Source: Candidatus Omnitrophota bacterium (lineage in GTDB: Bacteria > Omnitrophota > Gorgyraeia > Zapsychrales > JANLHA01). From it: a stretch of DNA of 64,000 nt. The position numbers and the translations under genes were made by a program. Positions within the stretch are counted from its first letter, which is position 1. Each line of letters begins with the position of its first letter. Below, piece by piece: positions 8,453 to 29,452 of the stretch. Where the stretch lies: contig JAKLFA010000002.1 of assembly GCA_022711395.1 (NCBI GenBank), forward strand, positions 451,864-515,863. Reading direction: 5' to 3'. The notes below the pieces were generated by a model. The model saw nothing but the letters and a program-made list of their open reading frames with translations. It had not been told where the DNA came from and searched no databases.

Positions 8453-9511
8453 TTATAGATATTTAACTGCAGGAAATATACGATATTTAAGAATCAAATC
8501 AGCCAAACCTTCTAAATTTTCAGAACTAATTTCACCTCTTCCTAATGAAACCAAATCAAAACGCTTTGAAAAAGCCAATATAATAGCTTCTGTCAAACAA
8601 CCATAAATTGCATTTTGCGGAAAAAAGGATTTCCATTTGCTGTCAAAAATTTTTTTATAAAATGGCAACTCAGAGGTTCCTCCAAAGAATAATGTCTTCT
8701 TGGCAGGAAAACTGGTCAATCCACTCTTCTCAAACGAAACATTTGGGGGCATGCCAATATCACAAATTATTGATCCCTCTTTAAAGTCTGAATATCCCAA
8801 CAATGCATCAACCGAGCTCGCAGCCGCAATTATTAAATCTGCATCCGAAACCGCTTCCCTTGCATCAGTAAAACAAACAAACTGATCAAACCCTTCCGCC
8901 TTTAGTTTTTTACAAATTTCTGAATCATCAGAGATTGTCCTTGAGCAAAGTCTTAAAAACTTTGCCTTCTTAGAATAAATTCTTGCACAAATAGACCCGA
9001 TGTCTCCGGTGGCCCCAATTATGGCAACCGAAAGCTCTCGCACTTTTTTACCATGGCGCCCCGCTTCTTTCTCTAATGCCATTGATGCCAATACCGCAGT
9101 CGTCGCATTCCCTGAAGTTATTGGAATAGATGTCATTTTTGAAACATCCCTCCCACCGTTGGTAACAATTGATGTAAATCCCGCCAACGTTATTATGTTG
9201 ACATTCTCCTGTTCAAAAATTTTAAAACAATCTATTATTTTTTTAATCGTATTTTCTTTTTCAATTAACATTTGTCGAGGAAAAATAGGGAGCAATACCC
9301 CAAGAATTTCGATCTCATAATTATTATGGATCAAATTACAAACATGCATTATCTTGTGAGGAGGGATTCTAACAATGTTGTGCGTTATAAAAGAATCATC
9401 CAGAAATTTAAGAATCCAATTCCCAAAAAAAGTGTATATTTTGGGGAATAAATCCCGAAAACTTTCAGTGTTTAGAGGGTGAATTATAATCCCGATTTTT
9501 ACTCTTTCCAT
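8453..9511 (-). CDS. Acyl-ACP reductase (AAR)-family NAD(P)-dependent reductase homologue
   Basis: By-eye collinear alignment with cyanobacterial AAR: GIIIHPLNTE~GLIGHLTSLE, LAGFTSIV~LGGFTSII, TSGNATTAVL~TTGNTHTAYV, IIGATGDIGS~VVGATGDIGS, YGCLTEAII~FACFAEAML (catalytic Cys retained). GC about 38% versus about 60% in neighbours. Confidence 0.6.
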   Translation of the reverse strand: MERVKIGIIIHPLNTESFRDLFPKIYTFFGNWILKFLDDSFITHNIVRIPPHKIMHVCNLIHNNYEIEILGVLLPIFPRQMLIEKENTIKKIIDCFKIFEQENVNIITLAGFTSIVTNGGRDVSKMTSIPITSGNATTAVLASMALEKEAGRHGKKVRELSVAIIGATGDIGSICARIYSKKAKFLRLCSRTISDDSEICKKLKAEGFDQFVCFTDAREAVSDADLIIAAASSVDALLGYSDFKEGSIICDIGMPPNVSFEKSGLTSFPAKKTLFFGGTSELPFYKKIFDSKWKSFFPQNAIYGCLTEAIILAFSKRFDLVSLGRGEISSENLEGLADLILKYRIFPAVKYL

Positions 9512-10728
9512 TTTTTTAACACCAAAGAGAAATTGTTCCCCCCAAACGCAAGGGAATTATTCAATACAACTCTAACCCTATGTTTCCTAAACGTATTCGG
9601 CACACAATCAATATCACACTCCGGGTCCGGGGTCTCATAATTGATCGTTGGCGGGATCTTTTGATCCTTGATCGCCAAGCAGCAGGCTATGGATTCTAAT
9701 GCCGATGCCGCGCCCATCGTATGCCCCAGCATGGATTTGATCGAACTGACCGGGATGTTTTTCAACCGCTCTCCAAAGACAGCTTTAAAGACTTCGCATT
9801 CTGTCTTGTCATTTTCAGGCGTTCCTGTCCCGTGGGCATTAATATAATCGACATCCTCCGGACTCAAACCCGCATCGTTTAAGGCCTTTCTGATAGCTTT
9901 GATCCCACCCTTTGCTTGAGGCTGAGTCAAGTGAAAAGCATCCGATGCCGCTCCACATCCCAAAATTTCCGCATAGATCAGCGCCCCACGCTTACGGGCA
10001 TGTTCAAGCTCTTCCAAAACAAGAATTCCCGCTCCTTCTCCTGGGATCATGCCTTGACGGTTCTTGTCAAAAGGCCTGCACTTTTGCGAATCGATAGCAA
10101 CCAAACGATGAAAACCTGTAAAAGCAATACGAGATAAAGGGTCAACCCCCCCCGCAAACATGCAATTAGTAAAACCCGTTCGTATCATATCTGTCGCTCT
10201 ACCGACAGCAAAATTCCCCGCAGCACAAGCATTCGCGAAAAGATGGCTATTATTTTTAATATCAAAGACATGTGCAAAATTTGAACTTATTGAATTTGCA
10301 GGATAAGTTAGTGGTAAAATTTTTTCCAATGTATCACATCCTATAGTCGTATCAATTTCTACGCATTTTTCAATAACCTGCCCTTCCCCCATGGTAGTTC
10401 CCACGCAAAGACCCGCATTAGTTTCTTTTAAATCAGCCTTAGCAAGCATCGAATCTTTTAAAGCCAACCCCCCCGCAACAATCAACATTTGAGAGGCTCG
10501 TCCAAAATGCTTGAAATTATTTTTTGGGCAAAATATTTTAAAATCAAAATCTCTAACTTGGCCAACCAATTTCCTATCATATTTTGAAGAATCCACATAA
10601 TCAACTTCCGATATCCCGCTCTTCCCTGCCAGCAAATTTTTCCAAAATTCCTGCCAGCCGATGCCGATCGAGGACACAACCCCCAGGCCGGTGACCACCA
10701 CTCTGCGTTTTACATTGTTATTTCGCAT
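9499..10728 (-). CDS. Beta-ketoacyl-ACP synthase I/II-like (FabF/FabB family)
   Basis: VVVTGLGVVS, active-site 'ANACAAGN' Cys, 'HGTGT' and 'GHTMGAAS' His residues, 'AFGGNNFS'. Start is more likely MRNNNVKRRVVV (10728) than the track's 10791, which would read through the GTGTC repeat. Confidence 0.8.
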   Translation of the reverse strand: MRNNNVKRRVVVTGLGVVSSIGIGWQEFWKNLLAGKSGISEVDYVDSSKYDRKLVGQVRDFDFKIFCPKNNFKHFGRASQMLIVAGGLALKDSMLAKADLKETNAGLCVGTTMGEGQVIEKCVEIDTTIGCDTLEKILPLTYPANSISSNFAHVFDIKNNSHLFANACAAGNFAVGRATDMIRTGFTNCMFAGGVDPLSRIAFTGFHRLVAIDSQKCRPFDKNRQGMIPGEGAGILVLEELEHARKRGALIYAEILGCGAASDAFHLTQPQAKGGIKAIRKALNDAGLSPEDVDYINAHGTGTPENDKTECEVFKAVFGERLKNIPVSSIKSMLGHTMGAASALESIACCLAIKDQKIPPTINYETPDPECDIDCVPNTFRKHRVRVVLNNSLAFGGNNFSLVLKKWKE

Positions 10729-10783
10729 TTCCAATCTCTTGTTTCGTATTATACCTTTTACTCCGTGTGTCCTGTGTCCTGTG

Positions 10784-11239
10784 TCATGCATCTTGCCTTA
10801 AAAACGAATAAAACACCTGCGCCTGCCCCAATTTCTCATTTTGCCCGCGCGTCATCTCGATATCCGCATACCCGCCGCTCGCCATCACCCGCCCCTGTAA
10901 AACTTCCATCCTCAGCACATCCCCCACTTCCGCAGGAAAGTTGATATCACATTTGATCTTGCCCAGCACGATCGTGCGCCGCTCCGGATCACCCCGTTCG
11001 ATCAAAGTCCGATACACAAAAAAAGACGCCGCCTGGGCCGCGGCCTCGATCATCAGCGTCGGCGGAAAAATGACCGAACCATCCGGCTGGCGCACAAGAT
11101 AGGGATCATTCGTCGTCACGTTTCTGACAGCGGTCAAACCTTTCCCAGGAACAAAATCCACAATAGAATCAATGAACAGAAAAGGAGGCTTTTGCGGCAG
11201 AACTGCGCGGATATCATCCTGGTCAAACACCGTGTTCAT
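10784..11239 (-). CDS. FabZ-like hotdog-fold protein with catalytic His replaced by Gln
   Basis: Gap-free alignment to E. coli FabZ: LPHRFPFLLVD...[26 protein letters not shown] versus LPQKPPFLFID...NDPYLVRQPDGSVIFPPTLMIEAAAQ. Both His positions (PHR and GHF) are Gln; the Glu is conserved. AAGGAGAG SD before the ATG at 11239. Confidence 0.7.
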   Translation of the reverse strand: MNTVFDQDDIRAVLPQKPPFLFIDSIVDFVPGKGLTAVRNVTTNDPYLVRQPDGSVIFPPTLMIEAAAQAASFFVYRTLIERGDPERRTIVLGKIKCDINFPAEVGDVLRMEVLQGRVMASGGYADIEMTRGQNEKLGQAQVFYSFLRQDA

Positions 11240-11367
11240 CAAACCGCTCTCCTTTGAGCAGTGTTCCCAAGACATATAAGTTATTTAAATAGAAATAGAT
11301 ATAGATATACTAGACGAACTTATTATAGAAGTGATTTTTATGACGGTCAAACAGAAAGAAGAAAAAA

Positions 11368-12342
11368 CTACCACTTGATCAGATTGGCGGCCGTGACAAG
11401 CCCCGAGCCGAAGGTGACCATAACGACCACGCTTCCGGGCTTGATCATCCCCTCTTCCACCGCTTCATAAAGAGCGATCGCCACCGCGGCCGCTGAGGTA
11501 TTACCATATTTCTGGATGTTGATGAAAAACTTATCTTTTGAAACGCCGGCCCGCTTCGCCACCGCGGAAATGATCCGGTCATTGGCCTGATGCGGAACAA
11601 CACAGTCCACATCTTCCAGTTTAAGGCCGGCTTTTTCAACGACCAGATCCACCGCGTCCGCCATCGAAGTGACCGCGACCTTAAACAGCTCCTGCCCCTG
11701 CATCACAATGGCTGGCTTCTGGATCTTCGTGTTGAACTCCAACTGGGCGGGCTCTTCGGTCTTGACATACAGAAGCTCATGGAACTCCCCGGCTGAATGA
11801 AGATATTCCGAAAGGATCCCCCTGCCCTCTTCAACCGGAGCAAGGATGCAGGCCCCGGCGCCGTCCCCAAAAAGCACGCAGGTGGCGCGGTCGCTCCAAT
11901 CAAGCAGGTTGGTGGCCTTCTCAGCGGCGATGACCAGGGCGGTCTTGAACATCCCCGATGTCAAATATTGTTTAGCCGTCGTGATCGCGCATAAAAACCC
12001 CGAACAGGCTGCGCTGACATCGAACGCGGCCGCGTTCTTCGCGCCGATGGCGCTCTGGACTTTGCAGGCAACAGCGGGAAAATTGGAATCCGTGCTGGCG
12101 GTCGCCACAATGATCAGCTCGATCCCCTCAGCAGGAACCGGCGAACCGTCCAAGGCGCTTTTCGCGGCCTCAATGGCCATATCCGTTGTGGTTTCATCCC
12201 GACGGGCCAGGCGGCGCTCCTTGATCCCGGTCCGTGTCGTGATCCACTCATCGGATGTTTCAACGACCTTTTCCAGGTCATGGTTGGTCACGATCCGTTC
12301 AGGCACGTATTTTCCGACAGCAACGATCCCTATATTTTTCAT
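11368..12342 (-). CDS. fabH: Beta-ketoacyl-ACP synthase III
   Basis: N-terminal 'MKNIGIVAVGKYVPERIVTNHDLEKVVETSDEWITTRTGIKER', then 'AACSGF' Cys and C-terminal 'HQANDRII...GNTSAAAV'. Confidence 0.9.
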   Translation of the reverse strand: MKNIGIVAVGKYVPERIVTNHDLEKVVETSDEWITTRTGIKERRLARRDETTTDMAIEAAKSALDGSPVPAEGIELIIVATASTDSNFPAVACKVQSAIGAKNAAAFDVSAACSGFLCAITTAKQYLTSGMFKTALVIAAEKATNLLDWSDRATCVLFGDGAGACILAPVEEGRGILSEYLHSAGEFHELLYVKTEEPAQLEFNTKIQKPAIVMQGQELFKVAVTSMADAVDLVVEKAGLKLEDVDCVVPHQANDRIISAVAKRAGVSKDKFFINIQKYGNTSAAAVAIALYEAVEEGMIKPGSVVVMVTFGSGLVTAANLIKW

Positions 12343-13343
12343 GCAAAACGTCCGATCTCTTTGCGCATATGTTCAATGACGTTATGTTCAACCTCGCGGC
12401 GTGCGGCGCGGATGGCGTTCTTGATCGCCTTGGCATCCGACCGCCCGTGGCTGATCATGACGATCCCGTCCACGCCCAAAAGCGGCGCCCCGCCGTATTC
12501 CGAATAATCCGCGTAACGCCTGATCTGCTTCAGGCGGGATTTCATCAGCCAGGCGCCGAGCATCGCCACCGGGCTTTTTTTGAGCTCCCGTTTTAAAAGC
12601 GCGATCGCTGATTCCGCCAGGCTTTCTGAAACCTTCAAGACCACATTTCCCACGAACCCGTCGCAGACGATGCAATCGCAATCCCCGCGGTAGATCCCGC
12701 TCCCCTCGACATTGCCGACAAAATTCTGCGGCAAACGCTCCGATAAAATCCGGTGGATCTCCTTAACAAAATCCGTCCCCTTCGTCTCTTCCTCGCCTAC
12801 ATTGAGCAAACCGACGCTGGGGTTCTCGATCCCCAACATGTCCCTGGCGTAAACATGCGCCAGCAGTGCCGACTGGACCAGATGCTGCGGTTTGGGGTCC
12901 GTATTGGCCCCCACGTCCAGCACAAGAGCGAAGCCTTTCAGCGTCGGCAAGACCGCACCGATCGCCGGACGTTCGACCCCCTGCATCATTCCCAAAAAGA
13001 CCGTCGCTGCCGCCACCACCGCGCCCGTGTTTCCCGCTGAAATGAAGCCCCTGCAATCCGGATCCGCCTTTAACAGATTGATCCCCACCGAAACGGAAGA
13101 ATTGCGTTTCTTGCGGATCGTTACCGTCGCCGGATCGTCCATCGCCACCACGTCCGGAGCATCCACAATACTGACCAACTCTTTAGGATAATCATACTGG
13201 CTCAGCTCCTGAAGGATCCTTTCCTTGGGCCCGGTCAGGACAACGCTGATCCCAAATTCCTTGACGGCCTGGATCGTCCCGTCCACAACAGCCTGCGGCG
13301 CATGATCCCCACCCATGGCATCAACAACGATTTTCATAAACAC
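12339..13343 (-). CDS. plsX: Phosphate acyltransferase PlsX
   Basis: 'KIVVDAMGGDHAPQAVV' N-terminus and overall PlsX collinearity. Overlaps the fabH start by 4 nt. True start may be MKIVVD at 13337. Confidence 0.9.
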   Translation of the reverse strand: MFMKIVVDAMGGDHAPQAVVDGTIQAVKEFGISVVLTGPKERILQELSQYDYPKELVSIVDAPDVVAMDDPATVTIRKKRNSSVSVGINLLKADPDCRGFISAGNTGAVVAAATVFLGMMQGVERPAIGAVLPTLKGFALVLDVGANTDPKPQHLVQSALLAHVYARDMLGIENPSVGLLNVGEEETKGTDFVKEIHRILSERLPQNFVGNVEGSGIYRGDCDCIVCDGFVGNVVLKVSESLAESAIALLKRELKKSPVAMLGAWLMKSRLKQIRRYADYSEYGGAPLLGVDGIVMISHGRSDAKAIKNAIRAARREVEHNVIEHMRKEIGRFA

Positions 13344-13388
13344 CTCGTATTTCGTGGCGTATAGATTTTTGTGAGCCGAACTGACAGG

Positions 13389-13589
13389 TTAGTCTTTTGC
13401 TTTTTTCTCTTTTGCTTCGACGGTCACGACCACATTCTTCTTGTAGTGGCCGCAAAACGGGCAGACCCGGTGCGAGATCACCTGCTTGCCGCAATGGCTG
13501 CACGGCTGCATTTTAGGCAGAACAACGCCCTGATGAGTGCGGCGTTTGCGTCCGCGTTGTTTTGAATGTTGTCTTTTTGGATTTGGCAT
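13389..13589 (-). CDS. rpmF: 50S ribosomal protein L32
   Basis: 'MPNPKRQHSKQRGRKRRTH...CSHCGKQVISHRVCPFCGHY' with Zn-ribbon Cys pairs. GGAGT SD before the ATG at 13589 (the track's longer ORF from 13661 is too long). Confidence 0.85.
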   Translation of the reverse strand: MPNPKRQHSKQRGRKRRTHQGVVLPKMQPCSHCGKQVISHRVCPFCGHYKKNVVVTVEAKEKKAKD

Positions 13590-13657
13590 GCTTGACTCCG
13601 TTTTTTCGAATGACACAAGACACATGACACACGACGCAAGAGATTCAAAATCCTGTG

Positions 13658-14089
13658 TCATGTGTCCTGTGTCGTGTGTCCTAAGTTACAGTTACACTGT
13701 TTCTGATTTAAATTTTGCCCGCACTGAAGGCACAACCCCTTACAATCATTTCGGCAAAGCTCGAACACTGAATTGGCAATGATCAGCTCTTCCCTTAGAT
13801 CATCTTTAAACTCAACATATTCCGTCGATGAATCGATATCGAATGCCAGCTCGAACCTGTCCGTTTTTTGCCGCTCGAACTCTTCCAGGCAGCGTGAGCA
13901 CGTCAAAGCGTAGGTCGCTTTTACTTCAAAAGCCGCAAGGACCTCATCACCGGCGCGACTGAAGACAGCCTCGACTTTTAAAGGGCCTCTTGCCTTCAGC
14001 GCGTCCTGCGGAAGGTCCAATTCCCCAGCGGTCAGAACTCGGCTGTATTGAAGCCCCCGGTCCGAAATATTGCGTAACGGGATCCTCAT
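13658..14089 (-). CDS. yceD: YceD/DUF177 family protein (23S rRNA accumulation factor)
   Basis: Conserved position upstream of rpmF-plsX-fabH. C-terminal CxxC...CxxC motifs 'CSRCLEEF...CKGLCLQCGQNLN'. The last ~8 codons are encoded by the GTGTC repeat. Confidence 0.7.
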   Translation of the reverse strand: MRIPLRNISDRGLQYSRVLTAGELDLPQDALKARGPLKVEAVFSRAGDEVLAAFEVKATYALTCSRCLEEFERQKTDRFELAFDIDSSTEYVEFKDDLREELIIANSVFELCRNDCKGLCLQCGQNLNQKQCNCNLGHTTQDT

Positions 14090-14568
14090 GATCGAAATCG
14101 GTCTTTCAGCTTTGCTTCCACATTCGGAGGGACAAAACTGGAAATGTCAGCCCCCAGGATCGCGGATTCTTTCAACAATTTTGATGACAAGAAAGAAAAC
14201 TGTTCCGACGGCATCAAAAAAACGGTCTCCACATCATCCGCCAGGCGCCGGTTGGTAAGGGCCATCTGAAACTCATATTCAAAATCCGAAACCATCCTCA
14301 AGCCCCGGATCAGCACATTGATCCCCCTTGATCTGGCAAAATCAACGACCAGTCCGTCAAACGCCACAACCTCAACATTCGCGATCCCCTTGACCGCCTC
14401 CTGCAGCATTTCAAAACGCTCATCTTTATCAAATAAAGGCTTTTTATGAAGGTTATTGGCAACGCCAACCACCACCCTATCAAAGATCCGCGACGCACGC
14501 TCGATCAGATCAATGTGCCCGTATGTCACTGGGTCGAAAGATCCCGGATATAACGCCGAACGTTTCAT
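14086..14568 (-). CDS. coaD: Phosphopantetheine adenylyltransferase
   Basis: 'ALYPGSFDPVTYGHIDLIERA' (T/HxGH motif). Start is probably MKRSALY rather than the track's upstream Met. Confidence 0.85.
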   Translation of the reverse strand: MKRSALYPGSFDPVTYGHIDLIERASRIFDRVVVGVANNLHKKPLFDKDERFEMLQEAVKGIANVEVVAFDGLVVDFARSRGINVLIRGLRMVSDFEYEFQMALTNRRLADDVETVFLMPSEQFSFLSSKLLKESAILGADISSFVPPNVEAKLKDRFRS

Positions 14569-14609
14569 CATTTTGCCTTTTTTAGAACTGATTTTCAAGC
14601 TTTTTAAGC

Positions 14610-15173
14610 TTATTTTACTCCATAAATAGCTAAACAGGACTTGCCATACCTGCGCAGCGTGATCTCATTGAAATCATGCTCACATGAGGCAAGTCCCTCT
14701 AATTTCCCGAATTCCACCACAATTCGGAAATTGGGGTGTAATATATCATAGGCGCTCAGGGTTTTCAAGGTCTTTTTTGCTAATCCAGCGTCGTAAGGAG
14801 GGTCCAGAAAAACCACATCGAACTTCCGGCCCTGGCGGGCCAGCATCTTGATCGTCACGAACACATCCGCCCCGAAAACCTCAAACATCCGGCCGTCTTT
14901 GCGGGGTTCCCCCAGCCCAAAACGCTCCATATTGGTCCTGATCGTTTCAAGGCACAATGGGTCTTTTTCCACCGCGACCACCTCTTTGGCCCCGGCTGAA
15001 AACGCCTCAAACCCCAAGGCTCCGCTTCCTGCAAACAGATCCAGCACCCTTAAACCTGATAGATCATGGCCCAAAAGGTCAAAAACCGCTTTGCGCACCA
15101 TGTTCTGGGTCGGCCGGATGTTGACCGGCATATAAAAATTCCGCCCCTTGAATTCACCTGTTAGAACTTTCAT
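14610..15173 (-). CDS. rsmD: 16S rRNA (guanine966-N2)-methyltransferase
   Basis: 'LDLFAGSGALGFEA...VVAVEKD...VVFLDPPY' RsmD/N6-MTase signature. Confidence 0.8.
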   Translation of the reverse strand: MKVLTGEFKGRNFYMPVNIRPTQNMVRKAVFDLLGHDLSGLRVLDLFAGSGALGFEAFSAGAKEVVAVEKDPLCLETIRTNMERFGLGEPRKDGRMFEVFGADVFVTIKMLARQGRKFDVVFLDPPYDAGLAKKTLKTLSAYDILHPNFRIVVEFGKLEGLASCEHDFNEITLRRYGKSCLAIYGVK

Positions 15174-15266
15174 GAAGCCTCTATCCTTTCATATAAGACA
15201 CATGAAAAAGCAGCCCGTCTTTCCTTGTTCCTCCGTGCGCCGTGTGTCATGTGTCCGGTGTCTGTA

Positions 15267-17372
15267 TTAACCCGCTTCCACATTTTCCAAAAATCCCGGA
15301 AAACGCTCCGCAATGACCGCCTTCAGCCCCGCGTTCTGCGGCTCGATCAAATGAAGGTCCTTATGGACCGTCTCTTCCGCCTCTTTGCGGGCCAATTCCA
15401 AAATATCGATCTGACGCATGGGATCGGAAAACCGCAACTCGTTCAGCCCGTGTTGATGACGCCCAAAATATTGCCCCGGCCCGCGGATCTCAAGGTCTTT
15501 CTGGGCGATCTCAAATCCGTTACGGGTCGAGACGATCGCCTCCAGCCGTGAAAGCCCGCTTTCCGTGGTAGGGTCCGCGATCAAAAAGCACACACCGTTT
15601 TTCCCGCCGCGGCCGATCCGCCCCCGCAGTTGATGAAGCTGCGAAAGCCCGAACCGCTCCGCGTGTTCAATGACCATCACATTCGCATTGGGGACATCGA
15701 TCCCGACCTCAAGCACGGTCGTTGCCACAAGAAGATCCAGCTCATGCCTTTTAAATTTACTCATCACATTTTCCGCTTCAGAATTCTTCATCTGGCCGTG
15801 CACCAGCCCGATACGGAACTCTTTAAAAATCTTCGTGCGGAACTCTTTATACATCGTCTCAGCCGCTTTAAGGTCCAGAGCTTCCGATTCTTCGACCAAG
15901 GGATAAATAATATAGGCCTGTTCCCCCTGTCTTAAGATCTCCTTGACCTTCCCGTAAACCCCTTGCGCCTCATCCATTGGAAAGACCAGGGTCTCGACAT
16001 CACCACGGCCCGGAGGCAGTTCATCGATCACCGAAACATCCAGGTCCCCGAAAAGCGTCAAGCTCAACGTCCGGGGGATCGGTGTCGCCGTCATGACCAA
16101 AACATCAGGGCATTGCCCTTTGGAAGACAAAAGCGCGCGCTGCCTGACACCGAATTTATGCTGTTCATCGATCACCGCAAAACTTAGGCGTGGGATCGTC
16201 ACGCCTTCGCTTAAAAGCGCGTGCGTTCCGATGACCAGGTCGATCTCTCCCCTGGCCAACTGTGACGAAACCCGCTCATGTTCGGCCTTGGGCATGCTTC
16301 CGACCAGCAGGTTCACGCGCATCGAGCTTAACGGTCCGTCTGCGATCATGCGCTGGATGCTCTCAAAATGCTGCCTGGCCAAAACTTCGGTCGGCGCCAT
16401 GACGGCCGCCTGCCGGCCGTTGCGGAAGGCAGTGACGCATCCGAATAACGCCACCACGGTTTTTCCCGAGCCCACGTCCCCCTGAAGCAACCGAAGCATG
16501 GGAGAAGTCTTTTGCATATCTGCCGAGATCTCATGAATAACCCGCCTCTGAGCCGCTGTCAGCGTAAAAGGAAGCTGTTCCTTAAACTCCTCCACCATCT
16601 GGCCCGAAACCGCATGCTCAACACCCGGCCTGCGCACAATGCTCATGCGCCGGCAAATGACCGAGATCTGAAAAAGAAAAAATTCCTCAAACGACATCCG
16701 GCGCAGCGCCTCTTCCTGTTCCTGCGCGTTTTCCGGAAAATGCAGATTCTGAATACTCCGACGGATATTGGGAAGCCGGTGTTTGTTGCGCAGCCATACC
16801 GGCAAAACATCCTCCAGCTCATCCAAATACTCATCCAGCCCTGCCGCGATGATCTTGCGCAGATATCGCTGCGTCATCCCTCGCGTCAAAGGATAGATCG
16901 GCACGATCCGCCCCATATTCAGCTTCTCATCGCCCCGGTCAATGATCTCATATTCGGGAGAGATCATCTGCAGACGGTTCTTGTAAACCTCCGCTTTCCC
17001 GTAGAGAACCACGCGGCTGCCGACCTTAAAATAATGGGCCAGATACGGCTGGTTAAACCAGACCGCCGTGATCTGCCCTGAACCGTCCGTGACCACGATT
17101 TCATGAACATGCTTTCGTTTATAATAGCTCCGACGGGCGGATTGACGCAGGACATCACCTGCGACAACCTGACATTCCCCAGCGCGAACATTTTTGAGCT
17201 CTACCATGCGGCTGCGGTCTTCATAGCGCCGGGGGAACAGATAGAACAGGTCCTCTATGTTGTCCACGCCAAGATTACCGAACAGAATTTTCCGCTTGGG
17301 GCCAACGCCTTTAATATACTGGATCGAAGTATTGGCGAGCTTATTCATAATTGAAGACGCAGGGAAGGTCAA
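15267..17372 (-). CDS. recG: ATP-dependent DNA helicase RecG
   Basis: Wedge domain, Walker A 'GDVGSGKTVVAL', DEQH box 'VIDEQHKFGV', helicase C motifs. Length 701 aa. Confidence 0.9.
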   Translation of the reverse strand: MTFPASSIMNKLANTSIQYIKGVGPKRKILFGNLGVDNIEDLFYLFPRRYEDRSRMVELKNVRAGECQVVAGDVLRQSARRSYYKRKHVHEIVVTDGSGQITAVWFNQPYLAHYFKVGSRVVLYGKAEVYKNRLQMISPEYEIIDRGDEKLNMGRIVPIYPLTRGMTQRYLRKIIAAGLDEYLDELEDVLPVWLRNKHRLPNIRRSIQNLHFPENAQEQEEALRRMSFEEFFLFQISVICRRMSIVRRPGVEHAVSGQMVEEFKEQLPFTLTAAQRRVIHEISADMQKTSPMLRLLQGDVGSGKTVVALFGCVTAFRNGRQAAVMAPTEVLARQHFESIQRMIADGPLSSMRVNLLVGSMPKAEHERVSSQLARGEIDLVIGTHALLSEGVTIPRLSFAVIDEQHKFGVRQRALLSSKGQCPDVLVMTATPIPRTLSLTLFGDLDVSVIDELPPGRGDVETLVFPMDEAQGVYGKVKEILRQGEQAYIIYPLVEESEALDLKAAETMYKEFRTKIFKEFRIGLVHGQMKNSEAENVMSKFKRHELDLLVATTVLEVGIDVPNANVMVIEHAERFGLSQLHQLRGRIGRGGKNGVCFLIADPTTESGLSRLEAIVSTRNGFEIAQKDLEIRGPGQYFGRHQHGLNELRFSDPMRQIDILELARKEAEETVHKDLHLIEPQNAGLKAVIAERFPGFLENVEAG

Positions 17373-17764
17373 TACCGTAACTGGCTGATCTTTTTTTCGA
17401 CCGCCCTGCGGTAAACGGGGCCGAAGATCGTTTCCAGATCATAAACACCGCGAAAATCATCCAGAGAATCGTCTTCGGTCTTGCTCAGGATCTTCTTCTG
17501 AACCAAATTGAAGACAATGTTACCGAAATCCTCGGTCGATTTGATCCCCCAGTATTGCAGGACCGAAAGCGCCATGGGGCCGAAACGCTCCATCAAAAGC
17601 ACTTTGACCCCCTCCAGGAGCTCTTTTCCTGTGACATGTTTCTTGCGCCGGAACTTATATTGCGTGAAGGAAAGCGCCTCCAGGACAAATTCATAGGCGT
17701 CCTCATGATAGCGCGGGTCTTCCAGGCAGAGAGTCTCGATCAAAGTATCCAAATGCTGTTTCAT
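17369..17764 (-). CDS. Hypothetical protein (131 aa, soluble)
   Basis: Complete ORF. 4-nt overlap with the recG start suggests translational coupling. No recognisable motifs. Confidence 0.5.
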   Translation of the reverse strand: MKQHLDTLIETLCLEDPRYHEDAYEFVLEALSFTQYKFRRKKHVTGKELLEGVKVLLMERFGPMALSVLQYWGIKSTEDFGNIVFNLVQKKILSKTEDDSLDDFRGVYDLETIFGPVYRRAVEKKISQLRY

Positions 17765-17896
17765 GGTTTTATTTTAACACAACGGGTTTTCAAAAAAAGA
17801 AGAAAGAGGAAATTTCTTAATATGCCCCTCTGTTGGTCCTCATCCAGTTTTGGTTTTCGCCGTTTACATTCTTAATCTTTTTGTCATAATATTTTC

Positions 17897-18349
17897 ATGA
17901 ATATCCACCCCAAAAACCACTGGATCTGGATCACCTACCTCGTTTTCTACACGTTCTACATGACCCAGATCACACAAGAATTCTTTGTCGCGGATTCCGC
18001 CATGCGCCATTATTATATTTTTTTAGTCCTTTTCGACCGCTATTATCTGATTCCACTGTTCATGAACGCCCTGATGATCATCATGAACATCCTTTCGATC
18101 ATCCCGGTATACTGCTACATCTTTAAACGAAAGTTTTTATCGGAAAACTTTTGGAAGCTTTTTCTTGTGATCCGGATCTGCGCGGAACTGAACGGCCACC
18201 ATTATGAATCAAAGGTCGTGCAAGCCTTTTGGTTCGACGACCCATTTGTCAGCTTTTCGATCGTTTTGATGGGGCTATGCTGGATGGCGCCTTCCTACCT
18301 CGTGCTCTATATTTACGCTTTCAAGCGCTCGAAAGCCCTGGGTCATTAG
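17897..18349 (+). CDS. Hypothetical small membrane protein (about 4 TM)
   Basis: Only convincing plus-strand gene in the 17-64 kb region. Hydrophobic helices. Convergent 4-nt overlap with the RND gene. AT-rich. Confidence 0.45.
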   Translation: MNIHPKNHWIWITYLVFYTFYMTQITQEFFVADSAMRHYYIFLVLFDRYYLIPLFMNALMIIMNILSIIPVYCYIFKRKFLSENFWKLFLVIRICAELNGHHYESKVVQAFWFDDPFVSFSIVLMGLCWMAPSYLVLYIYAFKRSKALGH

Positions 18350-21300
18350 ATCTCGGGGGCGTCTTGAGAGACCTTCACAGTGCCCCGATGGAAAAATTTC
18401 ATCCAAATATCATCGATGATGGCATAAATACAAGGAATGGCAATGAGCGTCAGCCCAGTGGCAAAAAGCAGACCCCAAAAGATCGCCAGGGCCATGGGCT
18501 TTAAAAATGGATCCCCGCCTCCGATTCCATAAGCCACGGATACAAGTCCAGCAAGCGTTGTGATGGTTGTCATCAAAACAGGACGCAAGCGCATCCGTCC
18601 GGCATCGATCAGAGACGCCCGTCTGCTATGCCCGCTCTGACGGAGCTTATTGACAAAATCCATGAGAACGATCGAATCATTGACCACGATCCCGGTTAAG
18701 CCGACCACTCCCATCAGGGCAAAAAAGCTCAAAGGCCTGCCATGAGCTAGAAAGGCCAAAATAACACCGATGATCCCGAACGGAATAGCCATCATGACCA
18801 CGAACGGCTGAACAATAGAATTGAACACGGCGGCAAGAATGATAAAAATCAAAAACATCGCGACCAAAAATGACCCCTGCAAATTGCCCTTGGTTACCTG
18901 CTGCTCCTCATATTCGCCGCTGTATTTTACCGTGTAACCCGGGTATTGCGCGGGAATTTCTTTAAACTCTTTTTGGAGCTGATTATTGACCCCATAAGAC
19001 GTTGCTTTTTTTTCATCAACCTGTGCGGTCACATAGACCACGCGCTTTCCGTCCAAATGATTGATCTTAAAAACCCCATCATACTCATCGACCTGAGCTA
19101 CAGCAGACAGCGGAACAAGATTTCCTTTTGAATTAGGAACCAGGATCTTGGAGAACGCATCCATACTGCGGCGGCTCTCCTCCGGAAAACGCACCCGCAC
19201 CGTGATCTCTTCTTCCGCTTTGACCGGCTTGATCGTCGTGGCAACGCCACCGTCTAAGGCATTGCGCACGCTCTCGGCGATCTGGCCGACCGTCAAATAA
19301 TATTTCTGCGCCTTTGCCTCATCAATATTGACCTTCAATTGCTTTTTGCCGACTTCATGGCCAAGAAGAACGTCCGAGACCCCGTCGATTCCTTTCAATG
19401 CGTTAATGAACTTTTGCGCGATCTGCTCCAGGGTGAAAAAATCATCCCCTTTGATCCCGATCTCGATCGGCTTTCCGACAGGCGGCCCTTCTTTACTGGT
19501 ATGAAAATAAAGCTTGTCAAAACCCTGGATCTTTTCCAACTCGGGACGCAGGCTGGCAACGATCTCCTGAGGGGTTCTCTTGCGGGACTGGGCAGGGGTC
19601 AAAAAAACCGTGATCTGCGCCAAATGGGTTCCTTTTTTCGAATGGGGGTCAAAACCGCGGTCCTCTGCGATCAAGCCCAGATCCGTAACATAAGAATCCA
19701 GCTCAGAATCCGGCAACGTTTCGATCAAGGCCTCCACTGGACGTATCCGCTCATCCATGGCGGTCAACGGCGTGCCCTTAACAGCCTCGGCTCTCACCTG
19801 AAATTCCTCGATCCCCTCACCGGTGAAAAGGACCATTTTCATGTGGGTCGCCGCGATAAAAAGAGAAAAAAACAAAAGTCCGATCAGACCTATGAACACA
19901 AAATAACGGTGATCAAGGGCCTTATTGAGGGTTCCGGCGTACGCCTCAACAAGCCATTTATACCACTTTCGGTCTTTATGAACATCGTCCTTATGTGTGT
20001 CTTTAAATTTTTTTGTGCGGATAAAATCCGATAAATGGGACGGCAGAATAATGAACGCTTCCAACAAAGACGCAAACAACGCGATTATGACGACAACCGG
20101 AATATACCGAACGAATTTTCCCATGATATCCGGCATGAACATCAAGGGAGCGAACGCCGCGCAGGTCGTCAGGATCGTGCCTGTAACAGGCGCGATCACC
20201 TCCGTCGTCCCCCTTACAGCCGCTTCCTTGGGTGACATCCCTTCTTCAATATAGCGATATACGTTTTCGGAAACAACGATCCCATCATCCACCAGCATAC
20301 CCAGAACAATGATCAGACCCAGCATCGTTACCAGATTGATGCTTAATCCCATCCATTGCATCACAATGAATGTCGAAAAAAGCGCGACTGGCACTCCCAA
20401 TGCCGTCATCAAAGCTGGGATCGGGTCCAAAAAAAGGAACAGAACAACAATGACCAGAACAAGACCGATGATCCCGTTGTTCTTCAAAACTCCCAGGCGG
20501 CGCTTTACGTAATAGGACATGTCATCGGTCACCTCAATGTCCATACCTTGTGGAAGGGTCTTTTTAAACTCTTCAATTGTCTTTTGGATCTCAGCAACAA
20601 TCGCAATAATGTCTCCGGAATCGTTTTTCACGACGATCATAGAGACCGCTTTTTTACCGTTCAATTTCGAGATCTCATCCGGGTCTTCAAACGTGGAAAC
20701 AACCCGGCCGATGTCCCGAACGCGCAACCAGTTTCCAGCGTCATTGGCGCGAATGATGACCTCTTCCACTTCCTGCGGCTGGGTGAACTCTCCTGTGATC
20801 CGCACGTTAAATTCAGTCTGACGGGTATCCAACTGACCGGCGGGGATCGTGACATTGCGTTTTCCTAACGCAGCCATCACCTCTTCCAACGAAACATGAT
20901 ATTCACTAAGTTTGGACGGGTCAACTTCAACCCAGAACTCCGGATCCCGCCAAGCCACCCTTCGCACCGACCCTACTCCTTTAATATCAAGGATCAGATC
21001 TTCCAGATGCTCGGCGTACTGGCGCTTCACATGCTCAGAGAAATCTCCGCTCAGCGTGATCTGAAGGACCGGGAATTCATCAGCCGACAGCTCAACCACA
21101 AGCGGATCATCTTTCACTTCCTGGGGCAAATCCCTAACCCGGTCTACCGCGTCCTTTATATCGTCAACGACTTTCCTTTTATTGGAAACGTTCGGATCGA
21201 TCTCGATCCCGATCTTGGAAAGCCCCTCTTCTGAAGAAGACGACATCTCCTTGACCCCGCTGATCCCACGCAACTCTTTTTCGATCGGAGTGGTCACGAA

Positions 21301-24186: not shown

Positions 24187-24304
24187 TCCCGGCAACGTTC
24201 TACTCTCCCAAAGCCTTGCGACTTAAGTACCATCGACCTCAGCGGGCTTAACTGCCGTGTTCGGAATGGGAACGGGTGTTTCCCCGCTAGCATAATCGCC
24301 GAGA
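24187..24304 (-). rRNA. rrf: 5S ribosomal RNA
   Basis: Reverse complement contains conserved 5S segments 'CCGAACACGGCAGTTAAGCCCGCTG' and '...GGGAGAGTAGAACGTTGCCGGG'. Confidence 0.8.
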
Positions 24305-24374
24305 AAATCTAAATTTCCAGTTATGTGATAATTGATGTATGACCCGTAAGCATACTAGACATGATGTATTTATG

Positions 24375-27335
<2,961 letters not shown>

Positions 27336-27483
27336 TACTATGACTAGTAAACCTACGAAAATTGCATACACCAATTATCACATAACTGTCAAAGAACGAT
27401 TTAACGCCAAAATGGCGCAACAGGAACAGAATTCCCGTTTAAATCTATCTTGAATTTTATTGCCAAACCATAACACCTAAATT

Positions 27484-27559
27484 TGGTGGAGCTGAGGAGG
27501 ATCGAACTCCTGACCCTCTGCTTGCAAAGCAGATGCTCTCCCAGCTGAGCTACAGCCCC
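27484..27559 (-). tRNA. tRNA-Ala (anticodon UGC)
   Basis: Reverse complement GGGGCTGTAGCTCAGCTGGGAGAGCATCTGCTTTGCAAGCAGAGGGTCAGGAGTTCGATCCTCCTCAGCTCCACCA. Cloverleaf with encoded CCA. Confidence 0.9.
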
Positions 27560-27604
27560 ACATGAAAGTCACTATACACAACTTTTTGTGCTTCGTGTCT
27601 TAAA

Positions 27605-27681
27605 TGGTGGGCCCGAGAGGATTCGAACCGCTGACCCCCGCGTTATCAGCACGGTGCTCTAACCACCTGAGCTACGGGCCC
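27605..27681 (-). tRNA. tRNA-Ile (anticodon GAU)
   Basis: Reverse complement GGGCCCGTAGCTCAGGTGGTTAGAGCACCGTGCTGATAACGCGGGGGTCAGCGGTTCGAATCCTCTCGGGCCCACCA. Confidence 0.9.
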
Positions 27682-27867
27682 AAAACCCAGCAAATTCGAT
27701 CCTTCGATCTCATTAAATTTAGAAAGCCAAGCTCTTTGAAAGAGCTTTTCCTTTGACCACAAGTTCGTGTGAGAACGAACTCATTGCCGTCTTTCCCTCG
27801 GGCAGGGTTCCTAGCATCATTATGATTGCCTATTCAATGAATAGTTTCTCGAAAACGAGAAAATAGA

Positions 27868-29452
<1,585 letters not shown>

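Follow-up and report, generated by a model that had tools for sequence, protein, structure and literature searches.

Short arrays of tandem heptanucleotides have been recorded in the genomes of several bacterial phyla since 1990, and they are statistically over-represented there. Among them, the short tandemly repeated repetitive (STRR) sequences are built from units such as CCCCAGT, TTGGTCA and CAACAGT. Here we describe three arrays of the heptad GTGTCNT (plus strand), or GACACNN on the minus strand, which is the mRNA strand. They occupy three gaps within 4.5 kb of a gene array in a Candidatus Omnitrophota bacterium (assembly GCA_022711395.1, contig JAKLFA010000002.1, positions 451,864 to 515,863 of the forward strand). 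We call this whole 64,000-nucleotide stretch the window. The arrays are probably short GACACNN tandem heptanucleotide repeats of the STRR-like intergenic class, which is also represented in Xanthomonas, Geobacter and Beggiatoaceae, with hairpins like those of repetitive extragenic palindromic (REP) sequences when they are paired. We favor this assignment because the traits of the class (period 7, unit number, inverted pairs, position and turnover) match those in the literature. The class is already known and unexplained; what is new here is the phylum Omnitrophota and the unit GACACNN.

In Xanthomonas, arrays of GGGAATC are 89–93% intergenic and mostly consist of four units (Rehm et al. 2015, PMC4692102). 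Their mean distance is 28 nt to the upstream open reading frame (ORF) and 160 nt to the next one. They form 70–75 inverted pairs, are transcribed and have no identified function. Between the same genes of related species they vary extensively in length and sequence (PMC4692102). The arrays described here resemble these and the GGGGA(C/T)T arrays of Nostoc in being intergenic, in having about four units and in lying nearer to the end of the upstream ORF. Further likenesses are the many inverted pairs, the occupation of the same gaps with variation and neighboring genes without a functional theme (PMC4692102). However, the Xanthomonas and Nostoc units are G-rich and have been read as G-quadruplex formers (PMC4692102), whereas GACACNN cannot form a G-quadruplex. 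Therefore a rule set common to all these arrays cannot depend on G-quadruplexes.

The cyanobacterial STRR sequences are 7-bp repeats that form hairpins, for example at hupS-hupL, and effects on transcript stability or translational coupling have been proposed for them (PMC2670836). They too consist of contiguous 7-bp units in short intergenic arrays, vary between strains and form hairpins between genes of one operon (PMC2670836; PMC4692102). They differ in their unit (GGGGAYT, compared to GACACNN) and in their hosts, Cyanobacteria rather than Omnitrophota.

In Geobacter metallireducens, 49 elements of four tandem heptamers are known (PMC2700814), and TAACTGA repeats occur in Beggiatoaceae, Cyanobacteria and Bacteroidetes (MacGregor 2015, PMC4679880). 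Like the arrays described here, these are genome-specific heptamers of 2–6 repeats in many intergenic places, including ribosomal-protein operons; their units contain stop triplets, and a post-transcriptional role is suspected but unproven. In contrast, most TAACTGA arrays precede a start codon by a few nucleotides, and a single inverted set was found (PMC4679880), whereas arrays of the window type are anchored to stop codons and are often paired.

Arrays in three gaps of the recG-to-KAS region

The first-pass annotation of this DNA, made from the letters alone, had listed three GTGTCNT copies, and they are present as described. When up to two mismatches are allowed, the pattern GTGTCNTGTGTCNTGTGTC gives eight overlapping matches, all in the three sites, compared to 0.00 in 100 dinucleotide-preserving shuffles. 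A two-unit pattern gives 10 matches where 0.36 are expected. The other 59 kb of the window hold no further cluster of three or more GTGTC or GACAC. Tandem Repeats Finder (TRF) assigns a period of 7 to all three arrays, with 2.9, 4.3 and 3.9 copies and a match of 82–100%. Each array is a run of contiguous tandem 7-nt units in three to four copies, as is typical of heptanucleotide simple sequence repeats (SSRs). The three arrays are a genuine repeat family, well above chance. They consist of the following parts:

10767..10785, minus strand: copy (i), three contiguous heptads, mRNA CA[TGA]CACAG GACACAG GACACAC
13655..13680, minus strand: copy (ii), 5' arm, mRNA GGACACAC GACACAG GACACAT GACACAG
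13638..13654, minus strand: copy (ii), loop of about 16–17 nt, mRNA GATTTTGAATCTCTTGC
13612..13637, minus strand: copy (ii), 3' arm, mRNA GCGTCGT GTGTCAT GTGTCTT GTGTC
15244..15262, minus strand: copy (iii), array, mRNA GACACCG GACACAT GACACAC
15196..15205, minus strand: copy (iii), single inverted unit of marginal significance, mRNA TCATGTGTCT

Copy (i) is a solo array without an inverted partner (TRF period 7, 2.9 copies, 100% match); its annotated start was 10764, but the quoted sequence begins at 10763. Copy (ii), at 13612–13680, is an inverted pair with arms of 23 nt that are 91% complementary and enclose a spacer of 16 nt. A homology search among the inter-arm sequences of the three copies gave nothing above z 4, and the heptads alone are common to them.

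The annotation had also named CAAGAGATT as a common flanking motif. It occurs twice in the window where 0.74 occurrences are expected, and 16% of the shuffles reach two. The two occurrences lie on opposite strands, and the motif was not found in the related elements. We attribute it to chance.

Every gene of the recG-to-KAS region is on the minus strand, and all arrays lie in the gaps with GACAC on the mRNA strand. This agrees with the annotated picture of an extragenic repeat family that follows stop codons in a same-strand gene array. In copy (i), the first heptad includes the TGA stop (10784–10786) of the gene for a FabA-like dehydratase, and the KAS start codon (10729–10731) lies 35 nt downstream. 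In copy (ii), the fourth unit includes the TGA stop of yceD (13658–13660); the 3' arm ends 19 nt before the rpmF start (13590–13592) and leaves the GGAG Shine-Dalgarno sequence uncovered. The array of copy (iii) begins 4 nt past the TAA stop of recG (15267–15269), and its inverted unit ends 22 nt before the rsmD start (15171–15173). Hence the annotated location just downstream of a stop codon is right for copy (iii), but copies (i) and (ii) overlap the stop.

All window elements overlap the stop or lie 0–4 nt from it, end 19–35 nt before the next start and leave the ribosome binding site (RBS) free. The repeat DNA sits in the only permissive slot of the operon, from the upstream stop codon to just before the next RBS. 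As in other heptanucleotide SSRs, the arrays are closer to the end of the upstream ORF than to the next ORF, and the same holds for the 119 genome loci listed below.

yceD reads eight codons into copy (ii), and its last residues are LGHTTQDT; the protein ends in ...QCNCNLGHTTQDT in the window versus ...QCNCK in the closest relative. In overlapping stop codons and in encoding the last residues of YceD, the window arrays are unlike STRR sequences.

The arrays are also open in frame with the downstream genes (window 13389–13661 and 9499–10791; likewise in L186, L188, L190 and L195, where L numbers denote other loci that we examined). Therefore some public gene calls start inside the arrays: that of the ribosomal protein L32 inside the hairpin (90 aa, not 66) and that of KAS inside copy (i) (430 aa, not 409). 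A practical consequence is that gene callers are misled by the arrays and make both genes too long.

The genes of the region were assigned correctly at first pass, as judged by Pfam:

15267–17372, minus strand: recG
14610–15173, minus strand: rsmD
14086–14598, minus strand: coaD
13658–14089, minus strand: yceD
13389–13592, minus strand: rpmF
12339–13343, minus strand: plsX
11368–12342, minus strand: fabH
10784–11275, minus strand: FabA-like dehydratase
9499–10731, minus strand: KAS

Elsewhere in the window, a complete rRNA operon (16S, tRNA-Ile, tRNA-Ala, 23S, 5S) occupies 24187–29452 on the minus strand, in the same orientation as the array genes.

Turnover of the arrays in close relatives

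Orthologous loci were retrieved via PlsX homologues. The closest relatives (L001–L004, 98% PlsX identity) have about 89–92% nucleotide identity to the window in this region; L005 (90% PlsX) and L007 (78%) are more distant. The yceD-rpmF gap of L001 carries a hairpin of 8-nt units, GGCACTNN, made of 6-bp core helices with mismatched 2-nt spacers. At −47.4 kcal/mol (z −5.13), it is as stable as the hairpin of the window despite the different unit. The recG-rsmD gap of the 98% relative holds AGTGTCNN octamers, and its FabA-like/KAS gap holds (GTAAAGC)7. Neighboring gaps of L001 each have a different unit: GACACNN, GGCACTNN and GTAAAGC. In L005, recG is followed by (ACTAAGGC)6.4 with an inverted arm (−49.6 kcal/mol, z −4.1), and the yceD-rpmF gap is unstructured (z −0.04). 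L007 is without arrays, and its gaps are just 26–33 nt long (33 nt at yceD-rpmF).

Length and sequence vary at the same gap among relatives, as in the SSR class. Because relatives hold different units in the same gaps, the gaps are persistently occupied by arrays of the same architecture, and unit sequence, period and copy number turn over quickly. Over evolution the turnover is fast: unit number, sequence and period (7 or 8) change, entire elements come and go, and some genomes have copied them to new places. This bears on a doubt raised at first pass, that only three copies might exist and none be conserved. There are indeed three copies in the window, and their sequence is unconserved at two of the three gaps, but arrays with this architecture reappear both in those gaps and elsewhere across related genomes.

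The first-pass annotation had further suggested that the heptads bind an OmpR/NarL-type regulator. This does not fit. The units have a contiguous 7-bp period, not 10–11-bp phasing or a 7-2-7 arrangement, and they lie at gene ends, not at promoters. The orthologous gaps hold unrelated units in close relatives, or none in the 78% relative. The arrays are not sequence-specific operators.

Upstream of recG, a GACACNN...NNGTGTC hairpin is orthologous between L001 (4+4 units) and L005 (2+2 units), and its loop is homologous as well (z 11.6). The window has only 20 nt in its place:

17349..17368, minus strand: empty or remnant site in the gap between a 131-aa ORF and recG, mRNA CCTTCCCTGCGTCTTCAATT

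These 20 nt align with the right-hand end of the L001/L005 element, from which it appears that the window has lost an element that L001 and L005 share. Comparing the filled sites (L001/L005) with the empty one (window) revealed no target-site duplication and no clean boundary.

Such presence and absence would be expected if the arrays were nonautonomous mobile elements, similar to miniature inverted-repeat transposable elements (MITEs) or to REPINs (paired REP sequences). Their terminal inverted repeats would be heptad arrays, a transposase would move them and insert them beside stop codons, and solo arrays would be decayed halves. We consider this rather unlikely. Besides the missing target-site duplication and boundary, the window copies share heptads alone and no internal homology. 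Neighboring gaps of a single strain differ in their unit, as in L001, and units often look derived from the local stop-codon sequence. Furthermore, unit number changes stepwise between orthologues (4+4 versus 2+2).

The same site is also where the window and the 98% relative part ways. Their identity is 97.8% from 22500 to 17379 and falls to 89–92% from 17351 to 11980. Since the drop (window 17351–17379; L001 5826–5954) falls exactly where L001 has the hairpin element and the window the remnant, it suggests a recombination boundary at the element upstream of recG. Beside the element lie two conserved ORFs of 131 and 150 residues without a Pfam match (window 17369–17764 and 17897–18349; L001 4856–5836).

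Within the strain the arrays are stable. All three are identical in 8–9 independent assemblies from different samples, which we located through YceD and RsmD and which include a 516-kb contig. Hence phase variation is excluded. That the arrays are contingency repeats, switching flanking genes via copy number, is hardly conceivable, even though they are simple sequence repeats and unit number differs among related strains. They have just 3–4 units, and instead of promoters or 5' coding regions they occupy the 3' ends of housekeeping genes. The same verdict has been published for the heptamer SSRs of Xanthomonas and Nostoc (PMC4692102). The arrays are not phase-variation switches.

Hairpins, terminators and promoters

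The sense RNA of copy (ii) forms 20 contiguous pairs and three more, with a free energy of −45 kcal/mol (z −5.24); none of 200 shuffles is as stable. The long hairpin annotated here is thus borne out. In copy (iii), TCATGTGTCT and the GGACACATGA of the array form a 10-bp stem that encloses a loop of about 45 nt; the stability is marginal (−22 kcal/mol, z −1.93, 9 of 200 shuffles as stable). The RNA of copy (i) is unstructured (minimum free energy −0.2 kcal/mol). The inverted-repeat nature ascribed to the whole family therefore holds for copy (ii), is confined to a 10-bp stem in copy (iii) (z −1.9) and fails for copy (i).

A stable hairpin right past a stop codon, as in copy (ii) and several related elements, could be a transcription terminator or attenuator that punctuates the recG-to-KAS array, a role that the annotation had also considered. 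An STRR hairpin upstream of hoxW has been suggested as a termination site (PMC2670836). For the window arrays we regard this as very improbable. No T-run follows any copy on either strand, and a terminator scan of 9000–18500 lists none at the three sites. Copy (i) is unstructured and copy (iii) marginal. The order yceD/rpmF-plsX-fabH is conserved in relatives, yet the gap is just 33 nt long in L007 and unstructured in L005. There is no Rfam family match either: Rfam 15 gives no gathering-level match in the region, and the sole match at E ≤ 1 is a spurious mir-187 (23 bits compared to a gathering score of 58 bits). The arrays are not intrinsic terminators.

The annotation had described the arrays as similar to REP sequences and bacterial interspersed mosaic elements (BIMEs). 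The defining features of REPs are a short palindrome that bears a GTAG or CGTC tag and, in GTAG REPs, RAYT transposases (PMC3733652, PMC3116915). REPs are found past the ends of ORFs, where they sometimes provide the stop codon, and sometimes within genes (PMC3733652). The arrays share with REPs, BIMEs and REPINs the extragenic and predominantly post-ORF position, the occasional supply of a stop codon, intragenic copies and species-specific sequence (PMC3733652, PMC3116915). REPINs consist of two inverted arms and a spacer that form a long hairpin, as do the paired arrays.

However, a REP is one imperfect palindrome of 20–40 bp with a stem of 5–13 bp and a short loop, whereas the arms here are tandem heptamers and the unit differs between neighboring gaps of one strain. 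REPs number in the tens to thousands per genome. Copy (ii) has a stem of 23–27 bp, 4+4 heptads and a 16-nt loop, and copy (i) is not palindromic. GTAG occurs in none of the three copies, and the sole CGTC lies at the inner end of a copy (ii) arm. Thus the likeness in position and behavior stands, but membership is not supported. STRR-like intergenic heptanucleotide arrays are the better class, and the REP analogy is reasonable as a description of how the arrays may work.

If the arrays are STRR-like repeats, they would be fast-turning-over and partly dispersed DNA that is tolerated between a stop codon and the next RBS. Within the polycistronic transcript, paired arms would form a long stem-loop, whose physiological effect would most likely be REP/BIME-like: as a structural barrier or a site of processing, the stem may allow the cistrons on either side to decay or be translated independently. 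A ribosome that completes yceD would also have to melt the stem of copy (ii), whose 5' arm contains the yceD stop. Solo arrays such as copy (i) may be half-elements or seeds with little or no function.

We also looked at promoters. A candidate inside copy (i), GGTATAAT downstream of the heptads, has no acceptable −35 hexamer at 16–18 nt and is not listed by the promoter scan; we rejected it. The FabA-like gene is separated from fabH by an AT-rich spacer (11276–11367) with (AAATAG)3.8, and upstream of the gene this spacer holds the best sigma-70-like match of the region, TTGACC-17-TATAAT (11350–11322, minus strand). A separate promoter is probable for the FabA-like/KAS pair.

Related arrays in other genomes

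An exact scan for (GTGTCNT)2GTGTC in one genome per species found at least 119 loci, and there too the arrays are close to the upstream stop (crude gene calls). Among the matches listed are GACAC arrays from Bacteroidota, Verrucomicrobiota, Planctomycetota, Acidobacteriota, Chloroflexota, Cyanobacteria and others, and at least 12 loci from nine metagenome-assembled genomes (MAGs) of Omnitrophota. In these genomes, GACAC units usually form part of longer arrays whose other heptamers are related to them (AAGACAC, AAGATGC, AGGGCAC). In 37 of the 44 co-directional gaps among the matches listed, the sense strand of the upstream gene carries GACAC (84%; p = 5e-6; crude gene calls). The Xanthomonas arrays, in contrast, show no strand preference relative to the flanking genes (30–35% each way; PMC4692102).

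A metagenome scan with PlsX added 58 loci, mostly from distant relatives (36–85% identity). Many of them have other heptamers in the gaps of the fab operon, often as inverted pairs:

AGCTGAC: L136, L139
AGTTAAC/AGTTGAC: L153, L134
AAATGAC: L152, L165
GTTCAGG: L158
GAAACTG: L159
octamer ACAGAGTC, 20 copies: L165

In L165 (85% PlsX), 20-copy and 8.5-copy arrays of this octamer follow fabH (1545–1707 and 2116–2183).

Across all loci examined, 324 arrays have period 7, compared to 52 with period 8 and at most 13 each with periods 4, 5 and 10–13. The median unit number is 4.6 (interquartile range 3.7–5.7). An inverted partner of the same unit is present for 72 of the 406 arrays (18%); these, like copy (ii), are the frequent inverted pairs with stem-loop potential that characterize the SSR class.

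The arrays follow the same layout throughout. Typically, the start of the first array coincides with the upstream stop or falls inside it (in the window, L001, L003, L005, L127, L134, L136, L152, L153 and L165), the stop triplet is frequently part of the unit, and the second arm ends 7–30 nt before the next start codon. Sense units contain a stop triplet in 53 of 98 arrays, compared to 25 of 98 for antisense units and 31% for random heptamers. The excess comes entirely from arrays that hold the stop of the upstream ORF itself; at most 13 of the other 58 have a stop triplet, which is about chance. A mechanism in which the arrays act as three-frame stop cassettes was rejected: because the excess sits in arrays containing the upstream ORF's own stop, the statistic is partly circular, and the units AAGACAC and GGGAATC hold no stop. 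We retain the excess as an observation.

Inverted arms of one unit change in sequence without losing their complementarity. The orthologous fabD-fabG gap has the arm cores ACAGCT/AGCTGT in L136 and L139 and ACAGTT/AACTGT in L153. All units in both arms have changed in a complementary way, and the loops are unrelated. Since every unit changed in both arms, either selection or a templated mechanism keeps the arms complementary. Between L136 (4036–4097) and L139 (8031–8094), the coding flanks are identical and the heptad arms nearly so, and the inter-arm sequence is largely unrelated; this spacer appears to be hypervariable or replaced.

Some elements have spread within a genome. Two copies on different contigs of one Omnitrophota MAG (L011, L117) share sub-terminal sequence beyond the heptads (z 4.1), and on a Planctomycetia contig (L106), conservation between two copies extends over about 100 nt and takes in the loop, but the flanks are unrelated. 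In L165, a paired AAATGAC element of 130 nt separates plsX from fabH, two genes that overlap by 4 nt in the window. GACAC heptad arrays also lie in frame inside genes, namely prolyl-tRNA synthetase (L018 199–224, insert KDTGHKTQDTRKEE) and a MiaB-like radical-SAM gene (L022 5140–5165, insert KTHDTRHKTH). Both inserts are rich in Asp, Thr, His and Lys and resemble the YceD tail of the window.

All of these cases favor the mobile-element explanation, the in-frame arrays because stepwise 7-nt slippage would cause a frameshift. REPs likewise follow stops, may supply the stop codon and occur in genes (PMC3733652). As to MITE traits, inverted arms are present, and internal homology exists in L011/L117 and L106 but not among the window copies. 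Against mobility, no transposase, including the Y1 type, was found in any called flank (flanks up to 10 kb).

The strong sense-strand bias calls up another explanation. The heptads could be cis sites for a protein that polymerizes on 7-nt units and regulates the flanking genes. On DNA, the candidate could be an omega-type (pSM19035) ribbon-helix-helix protein, either a repressor or a partition protein; on mRNA, it could be S1, Csp or a CsrA-like protein. The operators of omega are contiguous WATCACW heptads that overlap promoters and serve as the plasmid centromere. They resemble the arrays in their contiguous 7-bp units, direct and inverted, and in a CAC-containing core. The GACAC core recurs in three neighboring gaps and a related G(A/G)CAC(T) core in the octamers of relatives, and many units contain ACAGGA, which we take to resemble the CsrA motif. 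Binding of S1, Csp or CsrA was proposed for TAACTGA repeats (MacGregor 2015, PMC4679880), and deletion of heptamer repeats altered the reporter output of Nostoc recO/recF constructs (bioRxiv 10.1101/2022.06.06.494920).

Nevertheless, we find it quite improbable that the heptads are protein sites. They are not conserved upstream of orthologous genes, where unrelated units or none are found. Unlike omega sites, they lie at the 3' ends of chromosomal genes, partly in coding sequence and not at predicted promoters, and no cognate gene is nearby. Units differ from genome to genome, no flank contains a candidate protein, and, as in published cases, no functional theme links the flanking genes.

The assignment to the STRR-like class, which we prefer, also has evidence against it. 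Only one of the three window copies forms a strong hairpin. Sense RNA is more stable than antisense RNA in 12 of 16 elements (50 versus 33 G-U pairs), but flanking control windows show a similar sense-strand bias (mean −3.4 versus −4.9 kcal/mol, Mann-Whitney p = 0.27). Hence we could not separate structure at the RNA level from structure at the DNA level. We infer co-transcription, folding of the RNA in vivo and any effect on stability or translation. Simple local slippage explains neither why one GACAC core occurs in three neighboring gaps nor the GACAC strand bias. Therefore mobile elements and a binding protein stay alive as explanations. The in-frame arrays inside essential genes and the dispersed composite copies point to copying between loci, as by a mobile element. 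Finally, to our knowledge neither a function nor a generating mechanism has been established for heptanucleotide arrays.

A bolder proposal is that heptad and octad arrays are the cis-elements of one unrecognized machinery that operates across phyla. It would follow from their common rules: 3–5 units, anchoring to stops, preference for one mRNA strand, frequent inverted pairs with co-evolving arms and en-bloc in-frame insertion. Candidates may be a mobilizing enzyme that targets gene ends or a protein that polymerizes on 7-nt units of RNA or DNA. We think this distinctly unlikely. If it were true, a rule set independent of unit sequence would exclude G-quadruplexes and other explanations tied to one unit.

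Apart from this proposal, GACACNN cannot form G-quadruplexes and nevertheless obeys the positional rules seen in Xanthomonas and cyanobacteria, which argues that these rules stem from a general process and not from the chemistry of any one unit. The stop overlap, the complementary replacement of both arms and the in-frame arrays in essential genes are handles by which selfish DNA, RNA structure and protein sites may be told apart.

Unrelated lineages share a GC-rich palindrome, CCTGCCTGCCGGCAGGCAGG (core GCCTGCCGGCAGG), which lies at L034 3172–3185, L040 4552–4565, L106 2294–2306 and L152 10704–10717. It is nested in a heptad array in L040 and lies in one copy of the dispersed element in L106. 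By chance, about 0.04 occurrences are expected in the 1.4 Mb of sequence examined. The palindrome is reminiscent of the small dispersed repeats that reportedly occur inside the heptamer repeats of Nostoc.

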